17,035 nt of DNA from a virus (IMGVR_UViG_2671180417_000010:1-17035), one strand, 5' to 3'; shown: positions 1-16,569, numbered from the stretch's first letter. Notes: generated by a model not told the origin, from the sequence alone. Program-made: numbers and translations.

Positions 1-152
1 TACAACCCCGGACGGCAGAGCTCGCATGCTTTTTGGTTCCGGCTCCACCAGTATTCTGCCGTTATGGAATGCTGACATACATAACTTATTTCACATAACA
101 CGTTGATTTAATTAAATAATTTTCACCGCAAAAAGTGCCAAAAATCGCAAAA

Positions 153-185
153 TGACTACACCAGTGACTACACCGTTCGGTGCAC
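153..185. repeat. Left copy of terminal direct repeat (TGACTACACC x2 followed by GTTCGGTGCAC); candidate att junction
   Basis: 153..185 TGACTACACCAGTGACTACACCGTTCGGTGCAC against 15491..15523 TGACTACACCAGTGACTACACCGATCGTTGCAC: 31 of 33 identical, same orientation, about 15.3 kb apart. Confidence 0.4.
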
Positions 186-3830: not shown

Positions 3831-4126
3831 CAGTACACCCCCACATCACGGTAAGCCGTCCAGAGCGCGCCAATCGTCATGGGTACGCGCGTTTTTGCGT
3901 TATCCGCTACCAGCTGGCGATTCTCGTACAGGTGAGCGATAAACATCATGCAGCCAATCTTTATGGCTGGCGTGAACTCCAGCCCGTCATCAAAGCGCCT
4001 GCCTATATGTATCTGGCACGCCTCAAGCGATGCGGCAATGTATCCGCTGATTAACTGGTCTTCCTCGTCGCCATCGATGCGGCAATGGAGTTTCACTTCT
4101 TCCAGGGTGATAAGTTCTTCTGTCAT
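3830..4126 (-). CDS. Head-tail connector protein (phage gp6-like)
   Basis: 98 aa. N-terminus MTEELITLEEVKLHCRIDGDEEDQLISGYIAASLEACQ matches the characteristic gp6-like opening (LxxAKxHLRIDxDxDDxLI). ATGA overlap with the upstream gene. Confidence 0.7.
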   Translation of the reverse strand: MTEELITLEEVKLHCRIDGDEEDQLISGYIAASLEACQIHIGRRFDDGLEFTPAIKIGCMMFIAHLYENRQLVADNAKTRVPMTIGALWTAYRDVGVY

Positions 4127-6282: not shown

Positions 6283-7440
6283 TTAATCGTCGTCCTGCGG
6301 CAGTTCCAGAATCTTTATAGCGTTCGAATCCACCACGCCACCGCCTAAATATTTCTGCGTGAAAATTTTGATAAAGCCCGGCTCTGTCAGGTTGTCCGGT
6401 CTGGTGCGCACGCCCGTTTCATGATCAACGATGTAATAACCGCGTTTGAAGTCACCCAGGGCGATAACGTTATCCGGCATAAATTCCAGATACTCCACCG
6501 GAAGCCCCAGCAACGTATCAGGATCACCCGCCTGTAAACGGTCGCGCCAGATGTAATCGCCGTTCGCGTTCTTCACCTTCTGAAGTTTTGCCGCCGTCGT
6601 GGAGTTAACCACCCAGACCGCGTTTTTGCGGTATTTTTTACGTAATGCAAATTTCAGGTCGATCAGCGGGTCCGCAGATGTCCACGCCAGAGATTCGGAA
6701 GGTTTAATTACCTGCAACGTACCAAAATCACGCTCTTTGTCGTTCTTCTCTGCACGGGGTACGGATAAAAAACCTTTTGCTTTTTTGTCACCGTCGCCCA
6801 CAACCAGATCGCTTTCTTCGGTTTCCGTGAAGGTGTCGCCAATCTCACCCGTCAGCCATGAAAGGATGTCCACATCGGAAAAATCCACGATTTCCTGTGT
6901 GGTGCGCGGGTACGCATAGACCGGATACAGCTTAATGCTCACCTCGTTAATCTGCGGGGTGCTGGTCTGTTCGCGTGCCTTACCCTCTTCACCGTGGTTA
7001 ACGGTCGCACCGCCAGCGGAAACAAGCTGCTTAAACTCGTTGCTGCTGATTTTCTTCACGGTACAGATGCGGCGCATGGTGGATTCATCCGCCAGCATTC
7101 GCATGATTTCGGTGTTCAGTTCAGGGATAACGGTATAACCACCATCAGCGGGAACGCCTGTACTTAATGCGCGGGTTTCACCGGTCAGAATGTAGTTGCG
7201 TAGTTCTGCGGGGTCAGTGGTCTGGCTGCTTTTACCTGGCTTGCTGCGCTCTTCGTCTGCAATGGCTTCAAGGCGGGAAATGTCTTTATCGAGGGATTCA
7301 GCTTTAGCGCGTAATTCGTCAAATTTTGCGCCCTCAGCATCGTTAAGACTGCGGTTTTCTTTTTCCGCGTTCTCCAGCATGTCGCGCATCTGATTTTTAA
7401 TGGCGGTTTTCTGCTGGCGTAATTCGATTATTCTCGGCAT
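6283..7440 (-). CDS. Major capsid protein (HK97 fold) with N-terminal delta/scaffold-like domain
   Basis: The ORF-track start at 7488 is a GTG lying inside an upstream hairpin. The first ATG is at 7438..7440 (MPRIIELRQQ...) with AGGA 8 nt upstream. N-terminal coiled-coil (IIELRQQKTAIKNQMRDMLENAEKENRSLNDAEGAKFDELRAKAESLDKDISRLEAI) plus C-terminal LLGLPVEYLEFMPD region typical of HK97-type capsid proteins. Confidence 0.8.
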   Translation of the reverse strand: MPRIIELRQQKTAIKNQMRDMLENAEKENRSLNDAEGAKFDELRAKAESLDKDISRLEAIADEERSKPGKSSQTTDPAELRNYILTGETRALSTGVPADGGYTVIPELNTEIMRMLADESTMRRICTVKKISSNEFKQLVSAGGATVNHGEEGKAREQTSTPQINEVSIKLYPVYAYPRTTQEIVDFSDVDILSWLTGEIGDTFTETEESDLVVGDGDKKAKGFLSVPRAEKNDKERDFGTLQVIKPSESLAWTSADPLIDLKFALRKKYRKNAVWVVNSTTAAKLQKVKNANGDYIWRDRLQAGDPDTLLGLPVEYLEFMPDNVIALGDFKRGYYIVDHETGVRTRPDNLTEPGFIKIFTQKYLGGGVVDSNAIKILELPQDDD

Positions 7441-7477
7441 AAAAAAAGTCCTGGGATTAAGTAAGGAACTCCAGGAC
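7441..7477 (-). promoter_or_regulatory. Hairpin plus U7 immediately upstream of the capsid start codon; the stem includes the capsid SD
   Basis: Minus strand reads GTCCTGG-(16 nt loop)-CCAGGAC-TTTTTTT-ATG. The 3' stem half CCAGGAC contains the AGGA Shine-Dalgarno. Seen directly. Confidence 0.45.
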
Positions 7478-7531
7478 GCGGCAAACACTCAACCGTTTTT
7501 CATAAGGAAATCAGCAATCGCACCGATCGTT

Positions 7532-7577
7532 TTCCCGCCTGGTAATGAATATTGGCGAGCACATTAACAGGCGGGAA
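7532..7577. promoter_or_regulatory. 16-bp imperfect inverted repeat (TTCCCGCCTGGTAATG / CATTAACAGGCGGGAA) with 14-bp spacer in the capsid-operon leader
   Basis: Arms at 7532..7547 and 7562..7577, one mismatch. Either a dimeric-regulator operator or a long RNA stem in the late leader. Confidence 0.45.
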
Positions 7578-7650
7578 AGTGGCCCCAGCGTCCTGGCACC
7601 ACGGGCGAGAATACTCATGATTCAGTTCGGGTAAAATATGCCGATCCTGT

Positions 7651-7680
7651 CAGTGAACAACGTGGAACAACCACGAACAA
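7651..7680 (+). promoter_or_regulatory. Three perfect 10-bp-phased GAACAA units (cagtGAACAA cgtgGAACAA ccacGAACAA); candidate activator-binding array for the capsid/late operon
   Basis: Read directly. Located just downstream (in the transcription direction) of the early-operon terminator and about 210 bp upstream of the capsid start. Confidence 0.5.
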
Positions 7681-7689
7681 ATAATTTAC

Positions 7690-7720
7690 AAAAAATGACA
7701 AAAAGCCGGATTTCTCCGGC
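7690..7720 (-). terminator. Rho-independent terminator after the PerC-like gene
   Basis: Minus strand reads GCCGGAGAAATCCGGC (6-bp GC stem, 4-nt loop) followed by TTTTTGTCATTTTTTGT. Hairpin 7705..7720 starts 8 nt after the stop at 7728. Confidence 0.65.
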
Positions 7721-14235: not shown

Positions 14236-15465
14236 TTATTTTCTTCTGGCTACTGGTAGCGTGGTTACGTTTTCATGTGTTCCCGCCAGTATCCCTAACC
14301 GCTCCGTCCACATATCCAGCGCATTGCGTTTAGCATCCAGATAACGGGAATGATTATAAACTCGCTGCATTCCTGGCATCTGGTGGCCTGTAAGCTGCTC
14401 CACGACATGCGGATCAACGCCTAAATCGTTCAGCATGGTTGTAAAGGTGCGCCGGATGTCATGCAGTGACCAGTGAGGATGATTAAGCCTCCTGTGCGCT
14501 AATCTTCCATACTGCGATACGCTGGCCTCCTGTTTCACTTCCCCCAGCAATAAGCCCGTGTGCCTGTTCTGCTCCACCAGCTGCGTGACGAACGGCAGGA
14601 TCGCTTCCGGTATGGGCCGGAATATTGCGACCTTCGTTTTGCTGTGCTCCTTCGGAACGGTCCATAGCATTTCCGTAAAATCCCACTCCCCGATCTCCGA
14701 TAACCTCAGTTCTACCGTTCTGGCTCCGAAGACAATCAGGAGGCGGATTAACGCGACGTAGTAAGGGGAGAATATTTTTTTGTCCAGTGCCTGCAATAAT
14801 TCGCCAAGTTCTTTGTTACTTAAGACACGTTCGCTTATATCCGGTTTTTTCCCAACGTCCGCCACGTTCAGATCGTCCAGAACGTTGCTGATTGCATAGC
14901 GCCGCCTACGGCAGAACTTAAGCGCCTGTTTGCACGCCTGTAGCACGAATCCGGCAGTAACAGGCGTTCGCTTTGCCACCTGGTCAAAACAGGCCAGCCA
15001 GTGCCGTAGCTCGCATTTATCCAGCGGCATAGCACCAATCTGCTGTATTACGTGATTATTAAGTCGCCTTTTCAGGGCGATATAATCCACGCGGTTTTCC
15101 TTTACGTAATACTCAAGCCAGTAGGTGAGCGCATCGCCAACCGTTACCGGCTTTAACGCTTCCTGTACGGTGTAATTAAGCTCATGACGTGGATTTTTCC
15201 CCTCTGCCAGCCATGCGCGACACTGGGCGGCTTTTTCCCTGGCTGATTTCAGGCTCAGATCAGGATAACTTCCCAGCTTAATGCGTTCGGGTCGTGTCTC
15301 CCTTCCCGTTCCGGCCCTGTATGTGAAATACCAGGTCAATTTCCCTGATGTTAAATATTTCACGCTCAGGTTTCCGCCATCACTATAAAACGTGTTTTTC
15401 TCCGCTGGCTTACCATGAAGTTTCCTTAGCAAGGTATCGCTCAGTTTGTTCATTGCTCTGCTCAC
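14236..15465 (-). CDS. int: Site-specific tyrosine integrase (P4 / CP4-type)
   Basis: 409 aa. The ORF-track start at 15465 is GTG with GGGGG 6 nt upstream; ATG alternative at 15453. Catalytic-domain motifs include WSLHDIRRTF (HxxR) and C-terminal GHQM...RVYNHSRYL (Tyr region). N-terminal region resembles an integrase arm-binding domain. Confidence 0.9.
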   Translation of the reverse strand: MSRAMNKLSDTLLRKLHGKPAEKNTFYSDGGNLSVKYLTSGKLTWYFTYRAGTGRETRPERIKLGSYPDLSLKSAREKAAQCRAWLAEGKNPRHELNYTVQEALKPVTVGDALTYWLEYYVKENRVDYIALKRRLNNHVIQQIGAMPLDKCELRHWLACFDQVAKRTPVTAGFVLQACKQALKFCRRRRYAISNVLDDLNVADVGKKPDISERVLSNKELGELLQALDKKIFSPYYVALIRLLIVFGARTVELRLSEIGEWDFTEMLWTVPKEHSKTKVAIFRPIPEAILPFVTQLVEQNRHTGLLLGEVKQEASVSQYGRLAHRRLNHPHWSLHDIRRTFTTMLNDLGVDPHVVEQLTGHQMPGMQRVYNHSRYLDAKRNALDMWTERLGILAGTHENVTTLPVARRK

Positions 15466-15490: not shown

Positions 15491-15523
15491 TGACTACACC
15501 AGTGACTACACCGATCGTTGCAC
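15491..15523. repeat. Right copy of terminal direct repeat (TGACTACACC x2 + GATCGTTGCAC), 26 bp upstream of the int start; candidate att junction
   Basis: See 153..185; 31 of 33 identical. Confidence 0.4.
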
Positions 15524-15534
15524 AAAGGGCTACA

Positions 15535-15554
15535 ACGTGAAACAAGCTGGAACA
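15535..15554 (+). promoter_or_regulatory. Two 10-bp-phased GAACAA-type units (GTGAAACAA GCTGGAACAA) 70-90 bp upstream of int
   Basis: Read directly. Same orientation relative to its gene as the array at 7651..7680. Confidence 0.45.
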
Positions 15555-15722
15555 AGGAAAATCACAAATCTGTTGATAATCAAAAACATAATGCACAGCC
15601 TGAAACATTATGAAACAGCAAAAAACACTAAATGATAAAATGCTGTTATTGATTCACGGCCTGGCTTAACGATAACCAGACCGAGTTCCGGTACCAGAAC
15701 AGGTCGAAGTAATACCCGCACA

Positions 15723-16168: not shown

Positions 16169-16324
16169 TTACTCCTCAGGTTCGTAAGCTGTGAAGACAG
16201 CGACCTCCGTCTGGCCGGTTCGGATTCGTACCTCGCAGAGGTCTTTCCTCGTTACCAGTGCCGTCACTATGACGGTGATACAGATGACGATCAGGGCGAT
16301 TAACATCGCCTTTTGCTGCTTCAT
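16169..16324 (-). CDS. hok: Hok/Gef-family type I toxin (small membrane peptide). The in-frame upstream extension to ATG 16381 corresponds to a mok-like frame.
   Basis: 51 aa: MKQQKAMLIALIVICITVIVTALVTRKDLCEVRIRTGQTEVAVFTAYEPEE. Hydrophobic helix followed by the conserved RKDLCE...TGQTEVAVF...AYE pattern of Hok/Gef toxins; closest by recollection to HokC (Gef). The 70-aa ORF 16169..16381 (MLDICRLASYAPKGKEKQA + Hok) resembles MokC organisation. Confidence 0.8.
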   Translation of the reverse strand: MKQQKAMLIALIVICITVIVTALVTRKDLCEVRIRTGQTEVAVFTAYEPEE

Positions 16325-16569
16325 AGCCTGCTTCTCCTTGCCTTTCGGCGCGTAAGAGGCTAACCTACATATGTCTAGCATGAAATTGGCCTCAGATTAA
16401 TGTTAGGCGTCTTGCAGGACGCGTAATGTTAACTGGGGCTTTTCTCTGTCTGCCTTACGGTGGCATGCCCGAGGCAGACAGCCTCAAGCACCCGCAGCAA
16501 TTCTACTTAACTCTCGCTTTACCGCAAACCGTTTTTACCCGATATGGGAATTCCCATATCGTAATGAAT

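Follow-up and report, generated by a model that had tools for sequence, protein, structure and literature searches.

The operators of phage directionality factors consist of direct repeats spaced about one helical turn apart, found both at attachment (att) sites and at promoters, on which the proteins bind cooperatively in a head-to-tail arrangement and bend the DNA (PMC7498355). For PICIs (phage-inducible chromosomal islands) of Gram-negative bacteria, dependence on AlpA is already known: in EcCICFT073, AlpA expressed from pBAD activates a PalpA reporter in trans but not a Pint reporter, and AlpA overexpression without a helper phage leads to Int- and primase-dependent excision and replication (PMC6092414). 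The alpA gene of the same island is induced by helper phages (lambda, phi80) and not by the SOS response (PMC6092414). In EcCIEDL933, an alpA mutation has been published to abolish induction and transfer, and capsid-forming PICIs (cf-PICIs) have been reported to make tail-less capsids at high levels without a helper, with alpA overexpression boosting EcCIEDL933 production. For the HE-PICIs, Tommasini, Mageeney and Williams 2023 described a doublet only, which they did not find in other PICIs and whose binder they left between Int and AlpA (PMC10111431). Neither AlpA binding sites in PICIs nor a capsid-operon promoter is described in the literature that we searched, which left out most subscription journals. 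Here we analyse a stretch of viral DNA of 17,035 nucleotides (IMGVR_UViG_2671180417_000010:1-17035, hereafter the window) that holds a 15.6-kb cf-PICI of E. coli 042, kin of EcCIEDL933, and whose 10-bp-phased repeat arrays, as judged from sequence comparison, are likely to be head-to-tail binding sites for monomers of AlpA, which would be an excision-directionality factor of the Vis/Cox/Apl type that also regulates transcription.

The array unit can be written G-R-M-A-C-A-A-n-n-w and is repeated head to tail in an exact 10-bp register, in a single orientation within each array and with two to five units per array in the window (up to six in relatives). There are five such arrays and a sixth, weak one (Table 1). 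An earlier reading of the DNA from sequence alone had placed five arrays in the window, and all five were found at those coordinates; the 10-bp register also stood, with three of the arrays proving longer than listed, namely three good units at 191-220 preceded by a degenerate one at 181-190, five units at 14141-14190 and four at 15519-15558. The 19-bp identity that it had noted between copies in the capsid-operon and alpA-distal arrays is likewise real, in inverted orientation (7662-7680 and 14144-14162). As a single word, GVAACAA is not enriched in the window (17 matches against 10.4 expected, with 8 of 200 shuffles reaching 17). The phased pair GVAACAA-N3-GVAACAA, at one mismatch or fewer, is found 11 times against 0.10 expected (0 of 200 shuffles), and a motif-blind scan for any 4-mer occurring three times at exactly 10 bp returned five regions against 0.30 expected, a number reached by none of 300 shuffles. 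Four of these regions coincide with previously noted arrays and one is the weak array at 15592-15621; the scan missed 13911-13930, which has two units. Over 50 distinct units, the information content is 1.4-1.9 bits at the ACAA positions (4-7) and 0.1-0.3 bits at positions 8-10.

We compared eight related islands of like architecture: the cf-PICIs L001, L002 and L007; L003, which encodes the very Int and AlpA proteins of EcCICFT073; two islands inserted at smrA/abgR, L004 and L005; L006, inserted at clpS/cspD, whose AlpA is 60% identical; and L104, a fis-site PICI from another species (AlpA 61% identical). An array stands beside a repeat doublet in the int-side arm of all eight, and in the far arm as well in L001-L007. 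Both a distal and a proximal array lie upstream of alpA in all W-type islands, the distal one with five or six units, including EcCICFT073 (six units in L003). Across lineages the int-alpA spacer is only 73-78% identical; its ACAA cores persist in register, the three bases between them drift, and the number of units varies in whole 10-bp steps (five versus six distal units; one extra proximal unit), so that helical phase is preserved. The regularity first noted in the window extends to its relatives, position and phase holding in the eight islands despite diverged spacers.

A tblastn search of these islands with the window proteins left Int and AlpA as the only proteins present in all of them; PerC was missing from L004 and L104, the ribbon-helix-helix (RHH)/YlcI protein from L002 and L005, and DUF4222 from L104. 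The sequence-only reading had assigned the arrays to one island-encoded regulator, AlpA, the PerC-like protein or the RHH protein, and only the first of these candidates survives, being encoded by every array-bearing island while the other two are absent from some. The array motif further varies with the recognition helix of AlpA. Where this helix reads CRTTR (L006, L104, L130, L145, L150 and L153), the units are centred on CGAAC; where it reads SR(T/S)CR, they read GRMACAA, and at unit positions 1-2 CG is found in 26 of 30 units of the former type versus 6 of 50 of the latter (p = 2e-11, for a comparison that spans two or three AlpA types and units that are not phylogenetically independent). 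We take this covariation as supporting evidence for AlpA and not as proof. An exact peptide-pattern scan for further AlpA relatives, over one genome per species, returned two unrelated loci only, its patterns being too strict.

The two end arrays are components of a 76-nt direct repeat, the other component of which is the doublet TGACTACACC-AG-TGACTACACC. In each arm the first array unit begins 6 bp past the doublet; across the window, L006 and L104 this distance is either 6 bp or 6 plus 10 bp, a constant phase relative to the doublet. The exact word ACTACACC occurs only four times in the window, always within the two arm doublets, and these are probably Int arm-type sites because of their arm-only occurrence, the Arm-DNA-bind_3 domain of Int and a geometry like that of the HE-PICI doubled motif and the P4 arm repeats. 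The reconstructed attP reads int, doublet, array, weaker array, core, site resembling the integration host factor (IHF) consensus, doublet, array; on one side a doublet stands 82 bp from the centre of the core, on the other 130-151 bp. The TTGATT portion of the IHF-like site is kept in relatives. The flank of the doublet differs between islands around a constant core (GTG in the window, TTA in L002, ATG in L104). AlpA is 100% identical between the window and L002 and so are the arrays, whereas the Int N-domains are 76% identical versus 96% for the rest of the protein. These two integrases (L002 int at 16531-17760; the 96% refers to the sequence outside the first 80 alignment columns, the 76% to the N-terminal arm-binding part) also have different cores, AATGCTG and AAATATGTCC, and different chromosomal sites.

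Integrase arm-type sites are confined to the P and P' arms. The ACTACACC doublets are so confined and the arrays are not, three of them sitting 1.3-7.8 kb from either att site. AlpA is therefore preferred over Int as the binder of the arrays, because the doublets are arm-only with a flank that follows the Int N-domain, while the array motif follows the AlpA helix. By every criterion that can be tested at the sequence level, the arrays belong with the operator arrays of directionality factors: they are direct repeats one helical turn apart; in the att arms they lie next to the integrase arm-type sites and, in the P arm, between the doublet and the core; and the same element encodes a small winged-helix protein, AlpA, the only non-integrase protein common to the array-bearing islands. 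The placement of the arrays had initially been described as promoter-proximal, which is partly right; the two end arrays lie in the attL and attR arms and are not primarily promoter elements.

In the mechanism that we propose, an AlpA monomer (Xis/Vis/AlpA fold) would occupy each ACAA core, once per helical turn and on one face of the DNA. In the recombination arms, AlpA would act as the directionality factor, bending the arms and cooperating for excision with Int bound 6 bp away, and the attR array between doublet and core and the attL array flanking the doublet would be its sites in the excisive complex. At the alpA gene, the distal and proximal arrays would mediate the published autoactivation, to which the proximal array may add an autorepression ceiling. 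At the capsid operon, in cf-PICIs only, three units at about -55, -45 and -35 would replace the consensus -35, and expression of the capsid, protease, portal, connector and terminase genes would thereby depend directly on AlpA. The core of the earlier proposal, one island-encoded protein that would link excision to expression of the capsid operon, stands and can be narrowed to a small winged-helix protein. Coordination of int expression or of excision had been suggested earlier for the array-binding regulator; excision fits better, and int expression is disfavoured by EcCICFT073, an island with the same arrays, in which AlpA activated PalpA-lacZ and not Pint-lacZ and AlpA overexpression gave Int-dependent excision (PMC6092414).

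The predicted capsid-operon promoter, TTGTTC-16-TATTTT, puts the array at about -55 to -30, with its units in place of a consensus -35, which is a typical activator-dependent arrangement; a consensus promoter scan missed its -10 (3/6 plus 4/6 matches), as expected if the promoter is activator-dependent. Among the IMG/VR cf-PICI loci scanned, 40 carry the array, as does the more distant L153 (capsid protein 69% identical), and because L153 keeps TTGTTC, TATTTT and the 16-nt spacing while the spacer sequence differs, we read the hexamers as a real promoter signature. Classical PICIs have unrelated sequence at this spot, and the capsid array is lineage-specific to cf-PICIs. The leader that follows, of about 185 nt (7436-7625, minus strand), folds at -69 kcal/mol (z = -4.6 versus shuffles) and ends in a hairpin with a 7-bp GC-rich stem and a 16-nt loop, then U7. 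It also contains a hairpin with an 11-bp stem (CCCGCCTG...CAGGCGGG) and a 35-codon open reading frame (ORF) starting from ATGAGTATT, and a structured leader is kept in cf-PICIs including L153. In L155 (9791-9822) and L151 (about 530-570), whose capsid proteins are 66-70% identical, the flank TTTTGTAAATTAT is kept, three 10-bp units of (G/T)TACCC replace TTGTTC, and a short hairpin and a T-run come next. The small winged-helix gene of L155 (4835-5056) is a different one and has AAGTACTT repeats upstream of it, and the array appears to have been swapped together with the regulator. A 10-bp TGTTCAC array in L154 was considered as a late-promoter array and rejected, as it sits directly after the primase gene and is that island's origin.

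Upstream of alpA, the only sigma-70-like promoter found is TTGCCA-17-AACAAT (13951-13923), around which the proximal array spans -14 to +16; the same geometry recurs in L003-L005 and L007, as TTGCCA-17-CACAAT with one extra 10-bp unit. The distal array is some 250 bp away, centre to centre; a plus-strand promoter downstream of it was sought on the model of the capsid array, and none is conserved. The stretch between the two arrays (13970-14140, minus strand) holds strongly conserved blocks, TTGATTTTTA and ACTGGTTTTTTATACACTAGCGAATCACTCTTTAAAGA, the latter with the palindrome CTCTTTAAAGAG, which are candidates for binding by the helper-phage inducer or by a host factor; ACTCTTTAAGA recurs just ahead of the ribosome-binding site of alpA. 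A perfect LexA-box pattern on the plus strand, CTGTTCGCATATACAG, overlaps a 16-bp palindrome, CAGTATGCGCATACTG, in the interval from int to the distal array (14190-14218). SOS control of alpA through this box (CTGT-N8-ACAG, 14190-14205) was considered and rejected because the box is not conserved (L002 and L007 have a broken copy, and L003-L005 have lost it by deletion) and because alpA is SOS-independent in EcCICFT073 (PMC6092414); for the former reason the pattern is probably non-functional.

Besides the limited independence of the units in the covariation, several observations weigh against AlpA binding as set out above. L130, L145 and L150 combine an AlpA of the CRTTR type with a W-type capsid array, so either both AlpA types cross-recognise the GAAC/TTGTTC core or another binder serves that array. 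The orientation of the arrays relative to transcription is opposite at the two kinds of promoter, reading GAACAA toward alpA and TTGTTC toward the capsid operon. In two cf-PICIs, L151 and L155, the homologous spot is taken by a different array (TACCC), of which the locus DNA examined has no further copy. At alpA itself, no convincing sigma-70 promoter was found after the distal array, and the proximal array overlaps the -10 and +1, suggesting repression where activation has been published. Finally, the Pint fragment of EcCICFT073, which necessarily carries an arm array, did not respond to AlpA (PMC6092414).

A helper-phage protein, either a directionality factor of the Xis/Cox type or a small activator, might bind the arrays as the induction signal, with AlpA sharing the sites or acting elsewhere, which we regard as unlikely. 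Such a role would agree with the rise of alpA transcription in EcCICFT073 only when a helper (lambda, phi80) is induced (PMC6092414), with the cross-talk that has been reported for a helper Xis and an AlpA paralogue of a PICI (PMC11773190), and with the precedent of phage P4, where the Cox protein of the helper P2 binds three TTAAAG boxes, set 10 bp apart upstream of vis (9176-9205), and so switches the satellite on; PMC7498355 cites the action of Cox on P4 (its reference 41). Read as its reverse complement, AACACAACAT, the lambda X1 site reaches 7.1 bits with the array matrix, a score inside the span of the genuine units and like that of a weak one, but lambda X2 fails to match the matrix. 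When AlpA is expressed by itself and no helper is present, it autoactivates PalpA, and Int-dependent excision and replication follow (PMC6092414); therefore AlpA-responsive sites exist and the arm arrays need no helper protein. Helper Xis proteins are moreover diverse, whereas the arrays follow the AlpA type of the island. The two proteins might also share a landing pad, a helper Xis/Cox-like factor firing the first burst of alpA at the distal array and AlpA then taking over the same sites, excising the island and switching on the capsid operon. We give this decidedly little credence; if true, it would supply the helper inducer that has long been sought for Gram-negative PICIs, explain how cf-PICIs make tail-less capsids without a helper late function, and be the PICI counterpart of P2 Cox activating P4. 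Int itself has an arm-binding domain, is one of only two proteins common to all array-bearing islands and would find two or three arrays within the att arms, which could thus be extra arm-type sites for its N-terminal domain, the internal copies letting Int regulate alpA and the capsid operon. This is very unlikely, given that the ACTACACC doublets already match the arm sites of P4 and HE-PICIs in position, 12-bp period and copy number, occur in the arms only and have a flank that covaries with the Int N-domain; that arrays also lie 1.3 and 7.8 kb from any att site; that L104 retains the doublet and changes the array motif; and that the PalpA response needed AlpA only (PMC6092414). The HE-PICI L040 differs in Int, AlpA and doublet (its doublet being the published HE-PICI one), has no phased arrays and has alpA abutting int, and could not on its own separate Int from AlpA as the array binder.

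A different role for AlpA, as a processive antiterminator of the P. aeruginosa AlpA or lambda Q type that is loaded at the capsid array and reads through the hairpin-U7, we hold to be improbable. The strongly structured leader of about 185 nt (z = -4.6), with its 7-bp GC-rich stem and U7 before the start codon, would suit it, and P. aeruginosa AlpA, of the same Pfam family, is a proven antiterminator (PMC7969949). The Pseudomonas element is, however, a single GGGACGN5GGTA between -35 and -10 and not a phased array upstream of and over the -35 (PMC7969949); the island arrays are multi-unit and unlike that element, although a hairpin-U7 does lie downstream (7441-7477). A phmmer search with the island AlpA against all PDB chains gave 8c3t only and not the solved Pseudomonas AlpA complexes, the hairpin with its 16-nt loop masks the ribosome-binding site, making translational control an equally good reading, and arrays also stand in the att arms and upstream of alpA without a downstream terminator. 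That the arrays are not protein sites at all, but chance repeats, curved DNA or replication iterons, seems extremely improbable. The single word is indeed not over-represented in the window, but phase and clustering are far beyond chance and the cores are kept while the spacers drift. As to iterons, twelve copies of TGGGAC(A/G)AC surround AT-rich DNA in both orientations at 8806-9079, just downstream of the DUF927 primase gene, and this set is probably, from its sequence, the replication origin of the island and distinct from the AACAA arrays. Its copies share ACAAC with the array units, but we rejected them as instances of the array motif, as they are spaced at 9, 11 and 21-22 bp, run in either orientation and have GGGAC as their anchor. 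Replication iterons are further expected to cluster beside the initiator gene, around AT-rich DNA, in both orientations and covarying with the replicase, a description that suits the 8806-9079 set and not the arrays; these are unchanged in L007 and L004 despite a different replicase and are the same in islands with a RepA helicase or a D5 primase.

The reading that we favour, AlpA bound at the arrays, concerns the features collected in Table 1. The ends of the island were placed by junction comparison with islands in tqsA (L001) and between phoQ and roxA (L002), homology to which breaks off at a 7-bp core, giving an island of about 15.6 kb with all noted arrays inside.

Table 1. Features of the cf-PICI in the window (coordinates from the first nucleotide of the window)
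Feature	Coordinates	Strand	Remarks
attL crossover core AATGCTG, island left end	68..74	+	same 7 bp at 15639-15645; homology stops there
IHF-consensus-like site TAACACGTTGATT (YAANNNNTTGATW), P' arm between core and doublet	96..108	+	putative, read from the sequence
Doublet TGACTACACC-AG-TGACTACACC, P' arm, probable Int arm-type site	153..174	+	12-bp period; 82 bp from core centre
P'-arm (attL) array TGCACTGTAT (degenerate) GAAACAACGT GGAACAAATA GACACAAGAA	181..220	+	starts 6 bp past doublet; kept in L001-L007
Hairpin GTCCTGG...CCAGGAC + U7 directly before capsid ATG (7440)	7441..7477	-	sequesters AGGA Shine-Dalgarno
Predicted -10 TATTTT, capsid-operon promoter	7633..7638	-	16-nt spacer; start near 7625; kept in L153
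Capsid-operon array, minus-strand reading TTGTTCGTGG TTGTTCCACG TTGTTCACTG, 3 units	7651..7680	-	last TTGTTC (7660-7655) = predicted -35 hexamer
Intrinsic terminator closing the early (PerC) operon	7704..7721	-	23 bp upstream of capsid array
alpA, 62 aa, Phage_AlpA winged helix, proposed array binder	13681..13869	-	Pfam PF05930, E = 5e-17
alpA-proximal array GGAACAATAC GACACAATAA GACACCTGAT, 2 good + 1 degenerate unit	13901..13930	-	first unit gives predicted -10
alpA-distal array, 5 units GATACAACGT GCAACAATGA GCAACAATGT GGAACAACCA CGAACAAGAG	14141..14190	-	immediately 3' of int stop codon
int, tyrosine integrase, N-terminal arm-binding domain	14236..15465	-	Pfam Arm-DNA-bind_3, Phage_integrase
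Doublet TGACTACACC-AG-TGACTACACC, P arm (attR), between int start and array	15491..15512	+	
P-arm (attR) array, 4 units TGCACAAAGG GCTACAACGT GAAACAAGCT GGAACAAGGA	15519..15558	+	6 bp past doublet, between doublet and core
Weaker core-proximal array TGCACAGCCT GAAACATTAT GAAACAGCAA	15592..15621	+	4.7-8.2 bits; equivalents in L002, L003, L006, L007
attR crossover core AATGCTG, island right end	15639..15645	+	junction comparison

The alpA gene with its upstream region (555 bp compared) is 100% identical between the window and E. coli 042, and O157:H7 islands, including that of EDL933, are 94-97% identical to the window over about 80% of its length. From the annotation of two relatives, the genes run on the minus strand in the order int, alpA, icd-like, DUF4222, DUF927 primase, ssb and PerC, followed by capsid, protease, portal, head closure, connector, HNH, TerS and TerL; Pfam matches in the window are Phage_AlpA, Arm-DNA-bind_3 with Phage_integrase, PerC, DUF4222, DUF927 and Phage_capsid. 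By the gene set of the EDL933 island, the element has the composition of a cf-PICI of the published EcCIEDL933 type, with an int-alpA-replication module and its own HK97 capsid, protease, portal, connector, HNH, TerS and TerL, without tail or lysis genes. The nearest solved structure to AlpA (phmmer against all PDB chains) is that of an AlpA family protein, 8c3t. An RNA immunity module of the P1/P4 type, in which a C4 antisense RNA and its a1/b1 target match Rfam at gathering level (12374-12461 and 12529-12578, both on the minus strand), sits between alpA and the icd-like gene, flanked by a 41-nt direct repeat (12150-12190 / 12607-12647). Outside the island, the right flank carries a hok/gef-type toxin ORF and an Rfam sok antisense RNA (16169-16493).

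The array map makes the notion of AlpA as a master activator testable through three target classes, the att arms, alpA and the capsid promoter, and provides the exact mutations expected to separate excision from late-gene expression. It also separates Int arm doublets from directionality-factor sites, a question left open for the HE-PICIs, and offers a signature for the annotation of PICI ends, namely a 12-bp doublet, then 6 bp, then a 10-bp array.

Of the systems to which the island can be compared, P. aeruginosa AlpA has the same Pfam family name as the island AlpA and is likewise a positive regulator of lytic-type genes, but acts by antitermination from a single non-repeated element inside the promoter spacer (PMC7969949). 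Lambda Xis binds as a winged-helix monomer to tandem sites (X1, X1.5 and X2) with the Int arm site P2 on one side and the core on the other, as proposed here for AlpA, and X1 resembles the array unit, but Xis sites occur in one arm only and without a promoter regulon of this type. The operators of P2 Cox and 186 Apl come closer, being direct repeats at helical-turn spacing at att sites and promoters, with Apl arrays of five and seven (PMC7498355). Cox and Apl belong to different protein families and mainly repress face-to-face lysis/lysogeny promoters, whereas the published net effect of AlpA on alpA is activation and one island array covers -55 to -30 in a late promoter. The doubled attP motif of HE-PICIs, tgTGTATTGCantgTGTATTGCa / TGTATTGC, resembles the island doublet in its 12-bp period and in occurring once per arm, co-oriented, about 81 and 132 bp from the attP centre (PMC10111431); the island doublet, ACTACACC, is different and has beside it a second, separate class of repeats.

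The closest known system is P4, which shares with the island the succession of int, a 12-bp arm-repeat doublet, a 10-bp array (in P4, CGGA three times at 3973-4003), the core and a second doublet in the other arm. In work attributed to Cali et al. 2004 in Virology, the P4 Vis protein is said to be needed for Int-dependent excision and to bind two boxes between int and the core, bending the DNA; Vis reportedly also regulates the late promoters PLL and Psid, of which Psid drives the capsid-size operon, and is said to repress Pint, whereas AlpA left Pint unaffected in EcCICFT073. In the P4 record (X51522, L110), the TTAAAG triplet is annotated as 'ori type 2 repeat'; the word is that of the P2 Cox box and lies about 150 bp upstream of vis. 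The two systems differ in the repeated word, CGGA versus ACAA, and in their regulators, Vis being an AlpA-family protein only distantly related to AlpA; the island, unlike P4, has arrays in both arms and, as its putative late target, a complete HK97-type capsid and terminase operon. What the present comparison adds to these precedents is an array map for Gram-negative PICIs in which, as far as sequence can tell, Int doublets are set apart from AlpA arrays and the capsid operon would be wired to the same sites.

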